Origin: a phage
Assembly (NCBI GenBank): GCA_026328835.1
Contig: GCA_026328835.1_4850.1
Length of the DNA: 46,457 nt
Direction: 5' to 3' (one strand)
Position numbers and translations under genes: made by a program. Below, piece by piece: positions 1 through 46,457 of the stretch. Within the stretch, counting starts at the first letter, position 1; the number at the start of each line of letters is the position of its first letter. Below the pieces are notes generated by a model. That model saw only the letters and a program-made list of their open reading frames with translations. It ran no database searches and had not been told where the DNA came from.

Positions 1-256
1 GACCGTACATTAGCACGCCGTCAGGGTCTACAATTTTGCAGTGCATACCAACCGGAGGCAGACCTTCGCCGTTCCATGCTGGCTTTTGCAATGCGGCGAG
101 TGAGGATTCGTATTGCTGCTTAGTAACCACATCAGCAATCCAGTCGTCGCATTTTTTGAGCTTAAAGCCACTGCAATAGTCAGATTCCATTTCAAACAAC
201 TGGCCCTCACCGTCCTGCTCTACAGCGTCAATACCTGTTGTGATAGAATTAATCAT
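1..256 (-). CDS. hypothetical protein; reads through window start, frame continues at 46438-46457 if ends are joined
   Basis: ATG at 256-254 (reverse); open to position 1; translation MINSITTGIDAVEQDGEGQLFEMESDY... acidic and soluble; joined ends give stop TGA at 46440-46438. Confidence 0.4.
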   Translation of the reverse strand, partial: MINSITTGIDAVEQDGEGQLFEMESDYCSGFKLKKCDDWIADVVTKQQYESSLAALQKPAWNGEGLPPVGMHCKIVDPDGVLMYG

Positions 257-275
257 TATTTGAACAGGAGGCAGA

Positions 276-554
276 ATGAAACTATCGCAGCGCGGCATGG
301 AAACGCCTGGAATCACCGATGCCGTGGATATATCGCCTTACATCACCACCGAGACAACGCAGAATCAGTTTGATGCACTGACAAGTCTCGCCACCGACAT
401 CGGCATTGACACTTTCCGAAAATCAACGCTGTTGAAGAAGCATAATCTTCGCTGCTTCTCATGTGTCGTCGCGCACTTTGTTGTGTGGGGCGAGAAGACT
501 GACGACAAAGCAAAACGCAAAGCTGAAAAAGAGGTTTACTGGTATGGCTATTAG
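276..554 (+). CDS. GH24 (T4/P22-type) lysozyme-like protein, apparently internally deleted
   Basis: RBS AGGAGG at 266-271; C-terminal TQNQFDALTSLATDIGIDTFRKSTLLKKHN matches the conserved NQ(F/Y)DAL...ST.L..LN block of GH24 phage lysozymes as recalled; only 92 aa, no recognisable catalytic Glu/Asp region. Confidence 0.4.
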   Translation: MKLSQRGMETPGITDAVDISPYITTETTQNQFDALTSLATDIGIDTFRKSTLLKKHNLRCFSCVVAHFVVWGEKTDDKAKRKAEKEVYWYGY

Positions 555-1008
555 CAAAAACATGAAGGCGTTTCTGGATATGCTGGCGTACAGCGAGGGC
601 ACGGATAATGGGCGACAGAAAACCAATAATCATGGCTATGATGTAATTGTTGGTGGCTCACTGTTTACTGATTACTCCGACCACCCTCGCAAGCTGATTA
701 GCCTGCCAAAGCTTGGCATCAAATCCACTGCCGCCGGGCGCTATCAGGTACTGGCTAAATTTTATGACGCATACAAAAAGCAGTTGCGTTTACCTGACTT
801 CTCTCCTGTATCACAGGACGCTATTGCAATGCAGCTAATCCGTGAATGCAGGGCCACCGCTGATATTGAGGCTGGTCGCATTGATGATGCCATTCATAAA
901 TGCCGCTCGCGCTGGGCTTCATTGCCGGGCGCTGGTTATGGTCAGCATGAGCAGAAGCTGGATAAGCTGATTCAGGTATACAAGGATGCCGGCGGAGTTG
1001 CGGCATGA
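544..1008 (+). CDS. endolysin, lambda R-type lytic transglycosylase
   Basis: MAISKNMKAFLDMLAYSEGTDNGRQKTNNHGYDVIVGG..FTDYSDHPRK...WASLPGAGYGQ closely matches lambda R as recalled; ATG 544 preferred over ORF-track start 463. Confidence 0.85.
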   Translation: MAISKNMKAFLDMLAYSEGTDNGRQKTNNHGYDVIVGGSLFTDYSDHPRKLISLPKLGIKSTAAGRYQVLAKFYDAYKKQLRLPDFSPVSQDAIAMQLIRECRATADIEAGRIDDAIHKCRSRWASLPGAGYGQHEQKLDKLIQVYKDAGGVAA

Positions 1009-1244
1009 AAAAGCTAAGCAACTGGTTGCTCGGCGCATGGATTTCGTTCTGCTCACTGTTGCAACTATGGCCTGATGCAATGATGCATGTGTGGGTAATG
1101 ATGCCGGATGACCTGAAAGCGGCGCTACCGCCAATCGTGGTTAAAGGTGTGAGCTACTCCATCATGCTGATTGGTATCCTCGGCAAAATGCACGGCATGA
1201 GGAAGGAAAACCGGAGGCTACGCAATGATGTCGATTCTCGCTAA
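1005..1244 (+). CDS. putative holin (two predicted TM segments, charged C-terminus)
   Basis: 79 aa; hydrophobic LSNWLLGAWISFCSLLQLW and ALPPIVVKGVSYSIMLIGILG, basic tail KMHGMRKENRRLRNDVDSR; ATGA overlap with endolysin stop. Confidence 0.55.
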   Translation: MKKLSNWLLGAWISFCSLLQLWPDAMMHVWVMMPDDLKAALPPIVVKGVSYSIMLIGILGKMHGMRKENRRLRNDVDSR

Positions 1245-1716
1245 ATACTGGCGACCAATGGCAATTATTATAATTGTTGCTGCTGGCGCGCTGTGGGTGG
1301 CAAATAAGGTGTCCAGTTATGGTGAGCAGAGATACAACGACGGGTATGCGAAGGCCGTAGCCGAACAAAAGGCCGCAGACGAAAAAGAGGAGCAACGACG
1401 CAATGCAGAACTGCAAAAGATTCAGGCCGACGCACAGCAAAGGATTGATGCTGCGCGCAATGATGCTGTTAATGCTGCTGCTAAGTCTGGCAGGTTGCAG
1501 CAACAGCTCGCAAATATCCGCAAGCAGCTCGTCGGATATTCCACCTCTGAGTCCATTGGCAATCCAGCCGCAGAAACCGGAGTTTTGCTCTCAGACGTGC
1601 TCAGCAAATCTGTCGAAAGAAATAGACAACTGGCAGATTACGCTGACAGGGCAAGAGAAGCAGGATTAGCGTGTGAGGCGCAGTATAATTCGCTGCGCAA
1701 TAAAAAAGCCCCATAA
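1225..1716 (+). CDS. i-spanin (Rz-like)
   Basis: RBS GGAGG 8 nt upstream; N-terminal TM (MAIIIIVAAGALWVA) then coiled-coil periplasmic domain; position after endolysin/holin. Confidence 0.7.
   Translation: MMSILAKYWRPMAIIIIVAAGALWVANKVSSYGEQRYNDGYAKAVAEQKAADEKEEQRRNAELQKIQADAQQRIDAARNDAVNAAAKSGRLQQQLANIRKQLVGYSTSESIGNPAAETGVLLSDVLSKSVERNRQLADYADRAREAGLACEAQYNSLRNKKAP
1448..1669 (+). CDS. o-spanin (Rz1-like lipoprotein) embedded in +1 frame inside Rz
   Basis: MLRAMMLLMLLLSLAGC lipobox; proline-rich mature part SDIPPLSPLAIQPQKPE; RBS AAGGA 1439-1443; wholly inside 1225-1716. Confidence 0.65.
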   Translation: MLRAMMLLMLLLSLAGCSNSSQISASSSSDIPPLSPLAIQPQKPEFCSQTCSANLSKEIDNWQITLTGQEKQD

Positions 1717-1731
1717 TGGGGCTTTGTTTTA
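1704..1731 (+). terminator. rho-independent terminator
   Basis: aaagcccc-ataa-tggggcttt stem-loop followed by T-run. Confidence 0.7.
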
Positions 1732-1750
1732 GAATATACCAAGGTCAATT

Positions 1751-2011
1751 TCATTTATCATACAGCTTTCTCATTCTCTCTTCAGCTTCACTTTCTGTGA
1801 ATGTGAGACGCTCATTCATTGATTCTGCCTCATCAAGTGCTTTCCTGATCTCAAGTCCATTCATAGCATCAACAATTTTCATTGCGGCGTCGCAAAGTGC
1901 GTTGTTGCTCACCCAGCCATCAACAGACTCCACGGCATCCATAATGGCATTAGCTTCGCGCTCAGTTAATTGAATGATATAATTCTTATCTTCCATTTCA
2001 TCCTCACTCAT
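1751..2011 (-). CDS. hypothetical protein
   Basis: ORF track 1751-2125; internal start MSEDEMEDKNYIIQL at 2011 preferred. Confidence 0.4.
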   Translation of the reverse strand: MSEDEMEDKNYIIQLTEREANAIMDAVESVDGWVSNNALCDAAMKIVDAMNGLEIRKALDEAESMNERLTFTESEAEERMRKLYDK

Positions 2012-2150
2012 ACAGTGGTTTAATTTTATACCCAAACATAATTGCGTTCTGATGCTCAACGCTACCAGAAAACACCAGATAGCGACGACCACGATTATCC
2101 GTAACGATGTAGGCGGACGGCTCACTCTGCTGGCAGCGTTGCTGGTTCAT
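2004..2150 (-). CDS. hypothetical small protein
   Basis: ORF track 2004-2240; internal Met start; overlaps neighbours. Confidence 0.25.
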   Translation of the reverse strand: MNQQRCQQSEPSAYIVTDNRGRRYLVFSGSVEHQNAIMFGYKIKPLYE

Positions 2151-2430
2151 TAACAACCTCCTCAGCAGCTGTTTCAACGATGCGCACCAACGAACACTCA
2201 AGGTTCGGCGCATTATAATTGCCAGCCAGAAACAGCACACTACCAGTGCTAATCAGCACCTGCTTTGCATTTGCCTGTGACAGATTCTGCACGATGAATT
2301 GCGCTGTCTCTGTGCCGATTTTCAGCACTGCGCTGCCGTCGCTGTTCAGTGATACCAGTTGCGCGGATGTGTCAGCAATATTGGTAAAGTTCGCGTTTCG
2401 TTGCGCGATTGTGATGTCGCAGAATGACAT
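2122..2430 (-). CDS. hypothetical protein
   Basis: 102-aa ORF in co-directional minus-strand run. Confidence 0.45.
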   Translation of the reverse strand: MSFCDITIAQRNANFTNIADTSAQLVSLNSDGSAVLKIGTETAQFIVQNLSQANAKQVLISTGSVLFLAGNYNAPNLECSLVRIVETAAEEVVNEPATLPAE

Positions 2431-2732
2431 TATTTAATCTCTCCATTCAGTTCATTAACAATTAACGTTGCATAGCCAGCAATATCTTTCCAGCTGTCAT
2501 CATAAGTCGGGTCGCCATTCAGAATACGCCCAATCTTGTGCTGAATCATGTCGAGCGCCTCGCGCTGGCTTGGTGTCAGATTGTTCCACCCATCCACTTC
2601 GCGCATGACGGTTTTCAGTTCCTGCATGATTTCAGCGCCATCTTTGAATTTGCCGTATCGGCTACCGCGCGCGGTGATGAGTTGCTCTGTTGCGTCAGTA
2701 TGGCGCCTATCGCCCGTGATTTGTGAACTCAT
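2430..2732 (-). CDS. hypothetical protein
   Basis: 100-aa ORF; 1-nt overlap with downstream gene. Confidence 0.45.
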   Translation of the reverse strand: MSSQITGDRRHTDATEQLITARGSRYGKFKDGAEIMQELKTVMREVDGWNNLTPSQREALDMIQHKIGRILNGDPTYDDSWKDIAGYATLIVNELNGEIK

Positions 2733-3219
2733 TGTGATGTATTCTCCTGAATTCTTTTATTTTTGCTTCCGCTTCTCTTATGTCAGAAAAGTAACCAACT
2801 GTGAATCTTTTGCCATTTACTCCAACTCTTGCATGCCACTTGTTGTGCGATGAACTCCAGTTAACCCCCTTGATACCGCTAGTGTTGTTTTTGTTCATTG
2901 CTTTGTTGTGGCTATTCTCAAATTTGCTGGCCTCCCTTAAATTGCACGCCCTGTTGTCATTGCGAATTCCATTGATGTGATCAATCATTTCACTTGCTGA
3001 TGAGCCATGAATACATATCCATGCCAGTCTGTGAGCAAGAAAAGCCCTACCGCAAAGAATTATTTGCACATATCCATCTGGCTTTAAGTAGCCTGCAACG
3101 CTCCCTTTTTCTGCAATCCTATTCCTTGTCTTTAGCCATTTAAATTCCCCAGTTAGTGGATTGTAGTCAAGGTAACTCAATATAAACTCCCTACTCGGCT
3201 CCTCCCTCCTATGTCTCAT
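2707..3219 (-). CDS. HNH homing endonuclease with AP2-like DNA-binding domain
   Basis: HRLAW...DHINGIRNDNR..NLR HNH motif plus NTSGIKGVNW...W.A AP2-like segment. Confidence 0.8.
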   Translation of the reverse strand: MRHRREEPSREFILSYLDYNPLTGEFKWLKTRNRIAEKGSVAGYLKPDGYVQIILCGRAFLAHRLAWICIHGSSASEMIDHINGIRNDNRACNLREASKFENSHNKAMNKNNTSGIKGVNWSSSHNKWHARVGVNGKRFTVGYFSDIREAEAKIKEFRRIHHNEFTNHGR

Positions 3220-3422
3220 TTCTCAACCTCTTTCATCGTCACCAGATTATTTTCATCAACATTGAAGTTGTCCCTGATAAGGTTATACATCTCATCCTTC
3301 GGCATATCAGCCAGCGCCACATAGCAACGGGCAAAGTAGCGAACATCACGGAGTGTCAGCGGCTGACGCTTCTCCACAATGCTGGTGATAATGTCCATCG
3401 GCTCGCGTCGTGGTCTTGGCAT
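3216..3422 (-). CDS. hypothetical protein
   Basis: ORF track start 3458 is a TTG codon; ATG at 3422 preceded by AAGGAG preferred (MPRPRREPMDII...). Confidence 0.45.
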   Translation of the reverse strand: MPRPRREPMDIITSIVEKRQPLTLRDVRYFARCYVALADMPKDEMYNLIRDNFNVDENNLVTMKEVEK

Positions 3423-3522
3423 ATTTACTACTCCTTCTCGAAAATTATTGTTGACCAATCCACATCACTTAGTCAATACTTATTGACGTAGATTGTACCA
3501 CAACGGAAAAGGTGATGTGGAA

Positions 3523-3720
3523 ATGCGATACAAAGAAATAGCAGCGAGATATCAGAAGGAAGTTCGCGAGGTTATGGAAATCCTTAACGTTCGCGAGGAT
3601 ACCATTAAGTTTGTGGAAACTGCCATGTGCTCACTGGCGCTTGAAGCGGAGGTTGCAGGTCGTGAAAAGGCTGACGAACTTATATCTGCGGTGGTTTATA
3701 GTTCAACCAGTAACGGTTGA
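3523..3720 (+). CDS. hypothetical protein
   Basis: ATG 3523 with AAAGGTGA RBS (track start 3493 is TTG); MRYKEIAARYQKEV... Confidence 0.45.
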   Translation: MRYKEIAARYQKEVREVMEILNVREDTIKFVETAMCSLALEAEVAGREKADELISAVVYSSTSNG

Positions 3721-3780
3721 AGATGAAGGTTATCTGTGCGTTGAGCACGTTGTTATCAAATTCTACGGGAGAAATTATAA

Positions 3781-3975
3781 ATGGCGCATGACGAGCTGTA
3801 CGAAAAGTCGTTAATCCAGCGACTGAATGAAGTTGAACGCACTCGCGAATGGCTGGAGTGCGAGCTGCGAGAGGTGCGAAACCGACTGCAACGCAAGCGC
3901 AGTCAGCAGAAAGACGTTATCGACTGGTCCGGTGATGCACCTAAATTTAACAACATTGGAGAATGGTTGAAATGA
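3781..3975 (+). CDS. hypothetical protein (coiled-coil)
   Basis: 64-aa ORF. Confidence 0.45.
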   Translation: MAHDELYEKSLIQRLNEVERTREWLECELREVRNRLQRKRSQQKDVIDWSGDAPKFNNIGEWLK

Positions 3976-4220
3976 GCGCACCACATATGCCGATGATGAA
4001 TGATAACGGGTTGTTGTGCTGTCCATTCTGTGGCGGGAATGAAGTTTACTTGAATATTGATTTAGTGCTTGTATCTGTCGAATGCGGAGATTGCTGTGCT
4101 AGTTCAGGTGAATGGGGTTCACCGGAAACCGCTGTCAGGCACTGGAACACCCGAAACGGACACCTATACACCGCCGACGACTTCAATCAGGCAGCAGAGG
4201 AACGCGATAATGGACTATAA
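3972..4220 (+). CDS. Lar-like restriction alleviation protein (Cys-rich zinc ribbon)
   Basis: CPFCGG....(20)...CGDCC four-Cys arrangement in a small protein; ATGA overlap with upstream gene. Confidence 0.5.
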   Translation: MSAPHMPMMNDNGLLCCPFCGGNEVYLNIDLVLVSVECGDCCASSGEWGSPETAVRHWNTRNGHLYTADDFNQAAEERDNGL

Positions 4221-4698
4221 ATCACAAATCATGCGCGTAATAATCAATCATCCGGGAGCGACGCGTGCATACATTGAGAGGCATTGCAGAGGAAAGCACT
4301 CAAGCACCACAACGCATCGCCTGCATGAGATGCTTGCTCTTGGCTTCATTCGCCGCGAGAAGTCAGTGATTCGTGGAGGTAAGTGGCAGTACAAGTATTT
4401 CATCTCTGATGATGCGGCAGGTATTGATGATGCAATTAAGTGTCATTTGCTTGATAACGAAGGAGCAGAAGTGAAAGAAATCAGCGCAGCCACTGGCATT
4501 GATTACCGAATCGTAAAAAGCCGTATCCGCATTATGTTTCATAACGGCGATGTAACGCGAAGCTATGACCACCACAAGAAGCTGTGGCGCTACTCATGGC
4601 ATGAGCAGGAAGTAAACGTGAGCAACCTGTTTAATTCACTTCTTCGCAGCGCAAGAGGTCAGCATGGTAAAAGCGAAACGCAAGAAGCAAGAGTATGA
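4210..4698 (+). CDS. hypothetical protein, possible tandem winged-helix DNA-binding protein
   Basis: internal start MDYKSQIM at 4210 overlaps upstream stop; two helix-rich repeats. Confidence 0.45.
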   Translation: MDYKSQIMRVIINHPGATRAYIERHCRGKHSSTTTHRLHEMLALGFIRREKSVIRGGKWQYKYFISDDAAGIDDAIKCHLLDNEGAEVKEISAATGIDYRIVKSRIRIMFHNGDVTRSYDHHKKLWRYSWHEQEVNVSNLFNSLLRSARGQHGKSETQEARV

Positions 4699-4840
4699 GC
4701 CACTGCCGCCATGCGAAATGTCAGGAATTCCGCAGCAGGAGGTTGTGATTCTCACCGAAGCTGAGTGGCGCAAGGTGGCAAGAGTGCAAATCATGTTCCG
4801 CAAACTTGCTGAGGACGTACTAAATGAGATGGGCTATTAA
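4664..4840 (+). CDS. hypothetical small protein
   Basis: hand-translated 58-aa ORF MVKAKRKKQEYEPLPP...LNEMGY, frame checked codon by codon; not in >=60-aa ORF track. Confidence 0.3.
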   Translation: MVKAKRKKQEYEPLPPCEMSGIPQQEVVILTEAEWRKVARVQIMFRKLAEDVLNEMGY

Positions 4841-5102
4841 GCATAAATCTGGCAGAACTCTGTTTGCAACATCGGATGAGTTTATTGCCAATAACCGTAG
4901 AAAGATGGGCTGGATAGTGGAAGAGTTAACTGCATACGAAAGAATGAAAATCAATAATAAAGAAAATCAGAGAATTGTCTCTGTGAATGTTGGAGTCCTT
5001 AAAGCGGCATTAAGTGAGATTCGTGCTCACGTCGCAGTAAATGGCGAAGGCATCATGACCAGATCCATAATCAATGCATTAGAGGTGAATATAAAAAAAT
5101 GA
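4824..5102 (+). CDS. hypothetical protein
   Basis: 92-aa ORF. Confidence 0.45.
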   Translation: MRWAIKHKSGRTLFATSDEFIANNRRKMGWIVEELTAYERMKINNKENQRIVSVNVGVLKAALSEIRAHVAVNGEGIMTRSIINALEVNIKK

Positions 5103-5425
5103 TTATCCAACTAAACGACATCATGAAAGCAGACATTATTCAACTTGAAGATTATGACGTGCAACTGGCGTTTGAAATAGAAACCGTTGAGCGTCAACTG
5201 CAATATGCAGATAAGAAGAATGATCGTGTCTGGCACGAGAAAGCACTTAAGGCGCGCGACCACATGAAGCGCACGCGAGCACTCATCAAAACTCGTCTTG
5301 ATAAGCTGTATTACGGAGAGGAAAGATATTTGCATGGCGCGATACTGGCGCAAATCCGCAAGGAAATGCCAATTGGCAAGTTCATGTCATACGTTCACCG
5401 CGCAAAACAGGAGGCTGGGTTATGA
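5099..5425 (+). CDS. hypothetical protein
   Basis: 108-aa ORF; ATGA-type overlap. Confidence 0.5.
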   Translation: MIIQLNDIMKADIIQLEDYDVQLAFEIETVERQLQYADKKNDRVWHEKALKARDHMKRTRALIKTRLDKLYYGEERYLHGAILAQIRKEMPIGKFMSYVHRAKQEAGL

Positions 5426-5610
5426 GCGAACCAAAATTTCCAGAATTGCCAGTGGAGGTTCAGGTTGCATTGATTAATGCAGCAAGTGCAATGGCGACAA
5501 AGAAGATTGAGGCAATAGGCAGTGATTACAACAGGAATATAGACTGGTTTCAGAGGGAGTATCAAAAAATCTGCGACGCACTCTACAAAGAAAACAGGGG
5601 TAGACCATGA
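5422..5610 (+). CDS. hypothetical protein
   Basis: 62-aa ORF. Confidence 0.45.
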   Translation: MSEPKFPELPVEVQVALINAASAMATKKIEAIGSDYNRNIDWFQREYQKICDALYKENRGRP

Positions 5611-5753
5611 TTCCATTACTTTGGATATTATCAGTCTACGCATTCGCGCGGGTATTTGAGGCTGATACTCTGTACCAGATGATTTGCTATGGCGCTCTGT
5701 TCTGTCTCTCTGGTGCTGCGCTTGCATTTATGGATGATGTGATTTCAGACTAA
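5607..5753 (+). CDS. hypothetical small membrane protein
   Basis: hand-translated 48 aa MIPLLWILSVYAFARV...; ATGA overlap with upstream stop. Confidence 0.3.
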   Translation: MIPLLWILSVYAFARVFEADTLYQMICYGALFCLSGAALAFMDDVISD

Positions 5754-5808
5754 CTCCGTATATCTTTTGTTCATCATGGGCTGCTATCATTTAATCAGGA
5801 GGTAGCCC

Positions 5809-5931
5809 ATGAACATAATCCCTATCACTTACTTTCTCACGCTATACGCACTCACCAATTCGCCATTGTTTGCACTGGCTACCGCCTCATGGTGCTATAT
5901 CTCCCTGTGTTATAATTCGTCCACAAACTAA
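5809..5931 (+). CDS. hypothetical small membrane protein
   Basis: hand-translated 40 aa; AGGAGG RBS at 5797-5802. Confidence 0.35.
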   Translation: MNIIPITYFLTLYALTNSPLFALATASWCYISLCYNSSTN

Positions 5932-5946
5932 CCGTGGAGCTACGCG

Positions 5947-7703
<1,757 letters not shown>

Positions 7704-12705: not shown

Positions 12706-12990
12706 ATGAACGGAGCACTAAGGCAGGCCGCAGAGCAGATTATAAGCGGAACGGCAGGGCAGGTGATTGACAAGGCTGGATACGCTTCTATTGGTACTGG
12801 TATTGGCCTGAAAGTTGCAGAGCAAACACCTGTCACGCAATCTTATTTTGAGGCTATGATTCCACACAGCCTGACAGAGTGGGCGGCAGTAGCGTCAATC
12901 CTCGGCGCTCTGTCTCTGGTAATAAAGAATCTGTTTGAAATGTGGTGGAAGGTACGGGAGTCGAAAAAAAATGGCAGCACCAACACCTGA
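12706..12990 (+). CDS. hypothetical membrane protein
   Basis: 94 aa; C-terminal TM LTEWAAVASILGALSLVIKNLF then charged tail. Confidence 0.4.
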   Translation: MNGALRQAAEQIISGTAGQVIDKAGYASIGTGIGLKVAEQTPVTQSYFEAMIPHSLTEWAAVASILGALSLVIKNLFEMWWKVRESKKNGSTNT

Positions 12991-39924: not shown

Positions 39925-40368
39925 ATGGCTAATCCAAACCCTGTCATGAAATTTTCCTCTGAGTACCAGCCTGCTGGCAGAGGATTAAGCTACAGAAACA
40001 GGCTTATTGAAGCATTAAAGCGATGTGGGCTTGGCGAAGAGGAGTTTCTTGACGCATTCATCAGGACGTCAATCAGGATGACCGAGGAAAACCCGACTCA
40101 GGGTGTGCAGATGCTGAAGGAGATATTCCTGCGCATCAGTCCCGTGCAGAAAAGTATGGCGCCTCCGGTTAATTTTAAATACCGCAAAGATGCCACGCCG
40201 GTAGAGCAGATAGAGGATGTCATTCAATCTGTTTCCAGCGGTGAACTCCCAATTGACGTGGCGTCTCAGGTTGTGTCTATGATTAAGGTTGGTCTTGACG
40301 TGAAAGAGTTAACCGAACTCGCAGCGCGCCTTGAGCGACTGGAGAAATTACTGGAGCAGCAACAATAA
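39925..40368 (+). CDS. putative terminase small subunit
   Basis: 147 aa directly upstream of terminase large subunit (interrupted by HNH gene). Confidence 0.5.
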   Translation: MANPNPVMKFSSEYQPAGRGLSYRNRLIEALKRCGLGEEEFLDAFIRTSIRMTEENPTQGVQMLKEIFLRISPVQKSMAPPVNFKYRKDATPVEQIEDVIQSVSSGELPIDVASQVVSMIKVGLDVKELTELAARLERLEKLLEQQQ

Positions 40369-40374
40369 CTCATT

Positions 40375-40380
40375 TATAAT
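40375..40380 (+). promoter_or_regulatory. -10 hexamer TATAAT preceding HNH leader
   Basis: TATAAT 7 nt upstream of structured element. Confidence 0.35.
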
Positions 40381-40387
40381 AATCAAT

Positions 40388-40433
40388 GCGGCAAAGGGTA
40401 GCTCCCTGCCCGGATTGGTCTCCGGGCTGCCGC
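40388..40433 (+). ncRNA. conserved structured 5' leader element (copy A)
   Basis: outer stem gcggca/tgccgc enclosing hairpins aggg-tagct-ccct and gcccgga-ttggtc-tccgggc; near-identical copy at 45501-45546. Confidence 0.5.
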
Positions 40434-40471
40434 ATCCAACCAATAGACCGCCTGTAACCGAGGATTCAATC

Positions 40472-40990
40472 ATGTCATCATTAAAAGAGTTGCCACTCAC
40501 TCAAGAAAGACTTAAACATCTCCTGCATTACAATCCAGACACCGGTGTTTTCACGTGGTTAAGTAAGCCAAGCAGAAGAATAAATTCTGGAAGCATTGCT
40601 GGCAGGATAAAACCTAAGAAGGGGTATGTGGAAATAGGAATAAGTGGAAGGATCTATCTTGCTCATAGGCTGGCATGGCTTTACATCTATGGAACTTGGC
40701 CTAAAGAACAAGTTGACCACATTAATGGCATTCGTAACGATAACAGGATTAAGAATTTAAGGCTGGCCACAACATCACAGAATCAGTGGAACAAGAAGAT
40801 GCAAAAAAACAACACATCTGGAATTAAGGGGGTTAGCTGGGATAATCAACGGGGAAAATGGATAGCCCAATGCTGGTTATTTGGCAAGTATCACAAAATA
40901 GGTAGGTTTTCATCAATTGATGATGCTGAACGTGCAATAAGACAGTTCAGGGAGAAACATCAGGGGGAATTTTGCAATCATGGCGCGTAA
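40472..40990 (+). CDS. HNH homing endonuclease with AP2-like domain
   Basis: start MSSLKEL at 40472; HRLAW...DHINGIRNDNRIKNLR; NTSGIKGVSW. Confidence 0.8.
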   Translation: MSSLKELPLTQERLKHLLHYNPDTGVFTWLSKPSRRINSGSIAGRIKPKKGYVEIGISGRIYLAHRLAWLYIYGTWPKEQVDHINGIRNDNRIKNLRLATTSQNQWNKKMQKNNTSGIKGVSWDNQRGKWIAQCWLFGKYHKIGRFSSIDDAERAIRQFREKHQGEFCNHGA

Positions 40991-45494: not shown

Positions 45495-45500
45495 TTACTT

Positions 45501-45546
45501 GCAGCAAAGGGTAGCTCCCTGCCCGGATTGGTCTCCGGGCTGCTGC
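45501..45546 (+). ncRNA. conserved structured 5' leader element (copy B)
   Basis: identical inner hairpins to copy A; outer stem gcagca/tgctgc carries compensatory change. Confidence 0.5.
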
Positions 45547-45585
45547 ATCCAATCAATAGACCATCCTTATGACCGAGGACTCAAA

Positions 45586-46137
45586 ATGAAATCAATAAAC
45601 CGCAACAAAATGCCTGCAATGGCTCGCCTTTCACATCTATTCATTATTTCCAATGATGGAACAATCAAGCGCAGAATTGCTGCTGGCAATAGAGCGGCAG
45701 GCAGCAGCGCAGAAAGGAGTTTGTGTGGAAGTGACTATACATGCATAACTGTTGATGGCGTAAGATACCTAACCCATAGGGTTATTTGGTTCTTCTTTAC
45801 TGGTGAAGAGCCTGATTATCTTGATCACATAAATAGAAACAAAAAGGACAACAGACTATGCAATTTGAGGCCAGTATCCGCCACAGGAAACAGAAGTAAC
45901 ACTGATTTGATGAACAACAACACAACTGGATATATTGGTGTTTATTGGTATTACTACAAAGGAACTCCTAGATGGAGAGCTGCTTGCAACGATAAACATC
46001 TTGGGTATTACAGTTCGCTTGTCTCGGCAGTAAAGGCATATAATCGTTATGTGACAAGTATTTATGGTGATGAGGCATTAGCAAAGGTTGAGCATAACAA
46101 GAGGATGATCAAAGAATCTTTTGGTATTGAACTGTAG
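45586..46137 (+). CDS. HNH homing endonuclease with AP2-like domain
   Basis: start MKSINRNK at 45586; HRVIW...DHINRNKKDNRLCNLR; NTTGYIGVYW. Confidence 0.75.
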   Translation: MKSINRNKMPAMARLSHLFIISNDGTIKRRIAAGNRAAGSSAERSLCGSDYTCITVDGVRYLTHRVIWFFFTGEEPDYLDHINRNKKDNRLCNLRPVSATGNRSNTDLMNNNTTGYIGVYWYYYKGTPRWRAACNDKHLGYYSSLVSAVKAYNRYVTSIYGDEALAKVEHNKRMIKESFGIEL

Positions 46138-46142
46138 CAAAC

Positions 46143-46173
46143 AAAAAGCCCTCTAAGTGAGGGCTTTGCTTTA
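46143..46173. terminator. bidirectional rho-independent terminator
   Basis: aaagccctc-taagt-gagggcttt between convergent genes. Confidence 0.7.
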
Positions 46174-46243
46174 TCTTATCAGCATGCACAGAACAAATAT
46201 TATTATCGCATAGCACAATATCTCTACGACGCTGAATATTGTT

Positions 46244-46441
46244 TTAATCATCCAGTTTCACGCCGGGAATCTTGCCTGCTGAGATGGCGTCGTAAATGAT
46301 TTCGTATTCGCTATAAATCCAGTTATCACCCTCGTTAGCTTCTCTCTGCATTGCTTCTATTGCTGCATCGCGATTCTTTTCTGCTTCTGAACGGTAAGGT
46401 CGCAGGAATCTAGCTTCAAAACAACCAAGTCCGTAGCTCAT
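46244..46441 (-). CDS. hypothetical protein
   Basis: 65-aa acidic ORF; its ATG (46441-46439) would overlap the TGA of the junction-spanning gene. Confidence 0.45.
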   Translation of the reverse strand: MSYGLGCFEARFLRPYRSEAEKNRDAAIEAMQREANEGDNWIYSEYEIIYDAISAGKIPGVKLDD

Positions 46442-46457
46442 GCGAATAACTGCGGTA

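Follow-up and report, generated by a model that had tools for sequence, protein, structure and literature searches.

The ATGA junction at the joined ends of a Skate-like phage contig is very probably a join artefact across a 37-nt assembly gap

The Skate-like siphophages (Skatevirus, Segzyvirus, Buchananvirus and Shuimuvirus; proposed 'Skatevirinae') infect Salmonella, Escherichia and Klebsiella, and share one gene order around the whole of a circular map. Within that order, Skate-like phages carry a cluster of small minus-strand genes between a head-morphogenesis gene and the lysis cassette. PhageTerm analyses have been reported for STGO-35-1, described as headful, terminally redundant and partly permuted (PMC8954984), and for KlebP_265, described as terminally redundant and fully permuted (PMC11769527). 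Skate was closed by PCR across its contig ends (Skate paper). The Skate and PSH-1 papers contain nothing on packaging, and the seszw paper states that the packaging mechanism is unknown. The permuted, terminally redundant DNA of headful phages assembles as circles. Coupled gene pairs in which a stop and a start overlap as ATGA are real features of these phages, as noted for instance in the Skate annotation.

The window analysed here is the whole of a 46,457-nt stretch of DNA. It is a single linear contig, left unclosed, from a third-party draft assembly at NCBI that represents an Escherichia coli isolate (GCA_026328835.1, contig GCA_026328835.1_4850.1). Unlike the described Skate-like phages, it was recovered within a bacterial isolate assembly and not from a phage isolate. 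Although it lies in such an assembly, it comprises an almost whole virulent Skate-like siphophage genome without bacterial flanks, which points to phage carriage by the isolate or contamination of its read set, probably run ERR10438713. Once the circular map is rotated, the window runs collinear with both Skate and PSH-1: positions 226-45421 map in order onto Skate 8242..47393/1..6558, and likewise onto PSH-1. Blastn segments of at least 200 nt against Skate cover 63% of the window at 76-94% identity; for the Salmonella phages Skate, STGO-35-1, PSH-1 and IME207 considered together, the matched segments are 75-94% identical and amount to about 60% of the window. Over the lysis region STGO-35-1 is about 91% identical, and at the window ends no record in the phage collection exceeds about 92%. 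Both ends are located in the interval that separates the head-morphogenesis gene from the lysis cassette, where the relatives carry the same small-gene cluster.

An earlier note on this DNA, made from the sequence alone, proposed that the two ends are contiguous, that one gene reads across them into the start of another, and that the window is a complete circular or circularly permuted assembly. Base-level inspection agrees with its starting point. CAT at 254-256 is a minus-strand ATG, and the frame that it opens (1..256, 85 codons, MINSIT...DPDGVLMYG) has no stop down to base 2, leaving base 1 over as codon position 1 and the frame open to the contig edge. Joined directly, the ends read ...AACTGCGGTA abutting GACCGTACAT..., so that the frame continues from base 1 into 46457 through CTA CCG CAG TTA TTC GCA (LPQLFA) and stops at TGA 46440-46438. 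This TGA overlaps, as ATGA, the ATG at 46441-46439 (CAT 46439-46441) of a 65-codon minus-strand ORF, 46244-46441. When the open frame was attached to 100,000 random places in the window as a chance baseline, a stop within seven codons followed in 24% of joins, a stop with an ATGA overlap in 3%, and the same with a following ORF of at least 60 aa in 0.7%. The pattern at the join differs from the usual outcome of unrelated joins and, because it is rare among them, it needs an explanation; that explanation is not a gene boundary.

The joined window was aligned with PSH-1, IME207 and two metagenomic Logan contigs that encode the closest homologues (L010 and L011). In all four related DNAs the window ends align to their last base, and a single 37-nt gap lies exactly at the join. 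Homology at the left edge reaches base 1 and resumes beyond the gap; past the right edge the relatives continue on the plus strand with TTCTCGACATGAGCAATCACCTCTCCACTTTCACCTT and then GACCGTAC, which is window base 1. On the coding strand the missing segment is AAGGTGAAAGTGGAGAGGTGATTGCTCATGTCGAGAA; three relatives share it letter for letter, and L011 differs by one substitution. Contrary to what had been claimed, the ends are thus not contiguous but 37 nt short of each other relative to these four DNAs. With TTCTCGATATGAGCAATCACCTCTCCACTTTCACCTT inserted between 46457 and 1, a single 168-codon ORF is restored that terminates in GVKLDD; this outcome requires an insert of length 3n+1. Since 37 nt is 3x12+1, their omission shifts the frame of the direct join by one. 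Base 1 corresponds to position 1 of a Gln codon in the relatives, and 46457 to position 3 of an Asn codon. From there the gene's own frame, offset by 1 from the edge, stays open for 70 codons from 46456 down to 46244; this 3' part (46244..46457, minus strand) reads TAVIR-M-SYGLGCFEARF...GVKLDD, with its stop at 46246-46244. The real codons ACC GCA GTT ATT CGC ATG AGC (T A V I R M S) become ..CCG CAG TTA TTC GCA TGA in the direct join. The tidy ATGA at 46438..46441 (minus strand) lies within CGC ATG AGC (Arg-Met-Ser), its TGA being in the +1 frame only, and it arises automatically because R-M-S is read one base out of frame.

Taken together, we consider it very probable that the assembler failed to close the circle, leaving both edges in one gene with about 37 nt missing between them. 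The contig edges fall inside a small conserved gene of PHROG 7798, with about 37 nt lost between 46457 and 1. Direct joining then shifts the frame by +1, through the six wrong codons LPQLFA, into a TGA inside CGC-ATG-AGC, and the internal Met mimics the initiation codon of a further gene, 65 aa long and overlapping as ATGA. The real gene would read ...DPDGVLMYG-QGESGEVIAH(I/V)EN-TAVIRMSYGLG..., without interruption, over 168 codons in this phage. The six codons, the TGA and the ATGA described in the earlier note are literally present in the joined letters, but as the out-of-frame product of an omission, and the ATG at 46441-46439 that it had read as the start of the next gene is an internal Met of the same gene.

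PSH-1, IME207 and Sa179lw have one minus-strand gene at this place, of 186-214 codons (PSH-1, 186 from the first ATG, unannotated; IME207, 199, and Sa179lw, 214, both annotated). ORF 1-256 matches the middle of this gene and the 65-codon ORF its C-terminal part. The 85-aa edge product, which by exact look-up is HCT6523174.1 ('hypothetical protein OT511_001373, partial [Escherichia coli]'), aligns to residues ~21-97 of homologues of 176-200 aa, and the 65-aa product, HCT6523247.1 (OT511_001448), clusters with full-length homologues of 200 aa. For the repaired protein 1,066 homologues were found, the best being 88% identical over 96% of its length. The chain is continuous across the junction in each of the 46 that were aligned. 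The same module, ..LMYGQGESGEV(I/V)(A/S)H(V/I)ENTAVIRMSYG.., occurs in 33/46 and shows no length variation, with 13 residues between ..YG and TAV.. in all 33 carriers. The two ORFs do not behave as a translationally coupled ATGA pair, a single chain being present in the 46 homologues and in the four DNA relatives. Unlike real ATGA coupling, the junction has its TGA out of frame, its ATG is an internal Met, and one protein is encoded in every homologue examined.

In a profile search, the repaired protein matches PHROG 7798 with E = 1.9e-41 over residues 28-168; a Pfam search of the junction protein returned no family. The AlphaFold model of one homologue (P0001) has a mean pLDDT of 76.5, and the missing residues sit in its best-predicted element, a small beta-barrel at residues 84-130. 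A genuine gene boundary at the junction would cut a folded domain, since the missing residues lie inside this predicted barrel. A fold search with the barrel gave weak KOW/SH3-like matches (TM 0.22-0.28), and assignment of a function from them was rejected, the scores being too weak. The family holds more than 1,000 proteins. Its N-terminal half is variable, a small KOW/SH3-like beta-barrel is predicted, and the C-terminal motif ..IYDAIAAGKIPGVKL is conserved. Some members lie on Cronobacter and Enterobacter contigs of 0.27-1.3 Mb and are probably prophage-borne.

A genuine 37-nt deletion would offer another account of the junction. The ends would then be contiguous, the gene would be split into ORFs of 91 and 65 aa coupled by ATGA, and a circular assembly would merely have been opened at that point. 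The tidy ATGA join, matched by so few random joins, is in its favour, and so is the fact that the 5' end of the gene is already damaged in this phage. The deletion would nevertheless have to coincide to the base with the opening point, for which the prior is about 1 in 46,000, and it sits badly with the lack of terminal overlap, with the annotation of the edge gene as partial and with the finding that 0/46 aligned homologues are split here. The ERR10438713 assembly, moreover, reads into the segment supposed to be deleted. The direct-join 30-mer was absent from IMG/VR, JGI metagenomes and GTDB genomes. The weight of this negative is small: a positive-control 23-mer, placed across the right-hand (46457) boundary of the intact segment, itself turned up in only one contig of each collection scanned. 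A conserved 31-mer at the window end was found only in IME207 within IMG/VR, so that collection is not where the window comes from, and the junction region is absent from all complete E. coli genomes and plasmids in RefSeq. Overall, we regard a genuine deletion as extremely improbable.

Our preferred reading, an assembly gap within one gene, gains from a second, independent assembly of this phage. Run ERR10438713 supplies two Logan contigs that match the window at 100% identity, one over 118-3554 and the other over 45514-46457; the link between the window and this run rests on that identity over 4.4 kb, without stated provenance. The ATG-start 183-aa form of the HNH protein led to the second of these contigs, whereas exact look-ups of the 65-aa ORF, the 212-aa HNH form and the head-morphogenesis protein found no contigs. 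This contig, L014, which covers 45514-46457, runs 24 nt past 46457 (L014 945-968), reading TTCTCGATATGAGCAAT and then AGGGGGG. In this extension, the first 17 nt match the relatives' 37-mer at 16 of 17 positions and leave the frame of the junction gene open (..IAHIENTAVIRMSYG..), the resulting IAHIEN variant being present also in one homologue. DNA of this phage therefore continues past the right edge of the window, and 17 nt of the gap are read directly; the last 20 nt would be those of the relatives. The terminal AGGGGGG of L014 occurs in no relative. It is probably a sequencing artefact, a poly-G read tail at a low-coverage dead end; it marks the data here as poor, and something unusual could still lie at this point. 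The other Logan contig ends at window position 118, not 1, and together the two endings suggest that coverage is poor over about 150 nt, a stretch which defeated both assemblers. The break is most likely due to a local lack of read coverage. No repeat that could explain it was found: the terminal 20-mers are unique within the window, the 37-mer has no other copy in it, and the two ends have no direct repeat of at least 5 nt in common.

Two assemblies halt near the junction, the SKESA-type contig at 46457 and 1 and the Logan contigs at 46481 and 118. The break might accordingly be thought to mark a real discontinuity or heterogeneity in the DNA, such as an accessory gene in decay that coexists with its own 37-nt-deleted variant, or a preferred end or site-specific interruption within this gene; we hold this to be very unlikely. 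A related reading is a mixed population with full-length and 37-nt-deleted variants, or several single-nucleotide variants, of this gene, in which the assembler stopped at forks and the edges mark real polymorphism. The contig edges do match the boundaries of the insert, the 37-mer itself varies among relatives (G/T in L011, C/T in L014), and the gene belongs to a hypervariable, deletion-prone cluster. Edges bound a missing piece by definition, however, which makes their coincidence uninformative, and no microhomology was found at the ends of the putative deletion. L014 crosses 46457 unbroken and dies 24 nt later in a G-run, and with the other Logan contig ending at 118 a poorly covered stretch of about 150 nt fits better than a clean fork. 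We give the mixed population a very slim chance.

The amount of missing DNA could also exceed 37 nt, for example through a mobile element or an extra gene hidden in the portion that was not read directly. Homing endonuclease genes abound in the neighbourhood, and the direct view extends to 17/37 nt of the gap. Against this, the flanks and the visible 17 nt follow the relatives, homologues with this module type show no length variation, and the window plus 37 nt comes to 46,494 nt, within the 45-48.5 kb of the relatives. The probability of a larger insertion is, in our estimation, close to negligible.

As for the status of the assembly under the preferred reading of a 37-nt gap, the full gene complement is present and collinear with the relatives. 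The contig has neither a terminal overlap nor a seamless join, and neither assembler nor annotator treated it as circular, the edge gene being labelled 'partial'. SKESA, presumably the assembler of the NCBI contig, opens contigs that it recognises as circular at their smallest k-mer; here the lexicographically smallest k-mer lies at 12964 (plus strand), not at base 1. The junction gene resembles other edge genes of draft contigs in its 'partial' label, in the lack of terminal overlap and in the slight further extension by a second assembler. It differs from them in that both edges of a single contig lie in one gene, 37 nt apart, and it is for this reason that the naive join mimics a closed circle. 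Of the earlier claim that the assembly is complete and circular or permuted, what stands is that the ends are neighbours on the circular map and that the genome is near-complete; the contig itself is an unclosed linear draft.

The large terminase (TerL) has Terminase_3 and Terminase_3C domains, and its best relatives of solved structure are 4IDH (1e-33) and 2WBN (1e-8), which we take to be Sf6 gp2 and the SPP1 G2P nuclease, respectively. Sf6 and SPP1 are, like P22, headful (pac-type) phages; in contrast with the circles usual for such phages, this assembly is unclosed. Headful packaging and circular permutation of the virion DNA are likely, given the terminase type and the reports on STGO-35-1 and KlebP_265; the junction itself contributes nothing to this conclusion.

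If the contig ends were instead the true ends of the virion DNA, cohesive or with short terminal repeats, their tip bases would have been lost in library preparation. Tagmentation libraries of linear DNA with fixed ends do give contigs that are short by tens of bases, and an HNH gene adjoins the large terminase gene in this genome. The similarity of TerL to headful enzymes argues the other way, as do the DNA of STGO-35-1, reported as partly permuted (PMC8954984), that of KlebP_265, reported as fully permuted (PMC11769527), and the closure of Skate by PCR across its contig ends. The break also interrupts a conserved ORF midway, some 4 kb beyond the terminase genes in the downstream direction, and the HNH genes, of which the genome has at least three, are of the HNH_3/AP2 homing-endonuclease type. 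True ends at this position have next to no probability in our view. Segz_1 (MH791402.1) was considered as a phage sharing the same end and was rejected, as it ends in a different small gene of the same cluster; compared with PSH-1, its ends join seamlessly (PSH-1 locus 2719|2720). Its record was opened inside the minus-strand small-gene cluster, and has a truncated 'similar to hypothetical protein' at its end.

The practical meaning of the gap within one gene is a caution, and the finding is an ordinary one: a neat frame closure at joined contig ends can fake a gene boundary. In the present case, the false join produces two wrong proteins, one truncated (91 aa) and one spurious (65 aa), that seem to be coupled through ATGA, and such a join can wrongly certify a genome as complete. 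The genome is best treated as near-complete, linear and about 37 nt short, and the two edge ORFs should be merged into one gene. Circular permutation should be inferred from the terminase type and the relatives, not from the junction. The artefact has no bearing on any open biological question.

A second real lesion in the junction gene would not be unthinkable, as its 5' end is already lost. Set against the Skate-like phages, three small genes are absent here along with the 5' part of the junction gene. The comparison with L011 puts the loss at 776 nt, which took away these three minus-strand genes and the initial ~19 codons of the junction gene; the joint lies at a TTGACG microhomology at ~216-225 (minus strand). 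The highly conserved N-terminus MKLIDLLVQELPKRGGWP is gone from the window's junction gene. By the same comparison, positions 216..275 hold the deletion joint and, after it, the divergent intergenic/promoter region that belongs to the lysis cassette. This lysis-promoter sequence, non-coding in the relatives, contains the ATG at 256-254, which has no obvious ribosome-binding site. The ORF from 256 is thus a 5'-truncated remnant with a fortuitous start, and the junction gene may be a non-functional remnant in this phage.

At least three HNH_3 homing-endonuclease genes are present in the window, at 45499-46137 (plus strand), 40331-40990 (plus strand) and 2707-3219 (minus strand). The 5' ends of the first two (45514-45599 and 40401-40485) are 84% identical. 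Skate, Sa179lw and IME207 have nothing in the HNH slot just upstream of the junction gene; Segz_1 and L010 have a similar HNH there, and L011 a DUF723/T5orf172-type protein. Between the convergent HNH and junction genes, at 46147-46165, lies a G+C-rich hairpin, AGCCCTC-TAAGT-GAGGGCT, flanked by A-/T-runs, which resembles a terminator acting in both directions; a terminator is annotated at the corresponding place in Skate.
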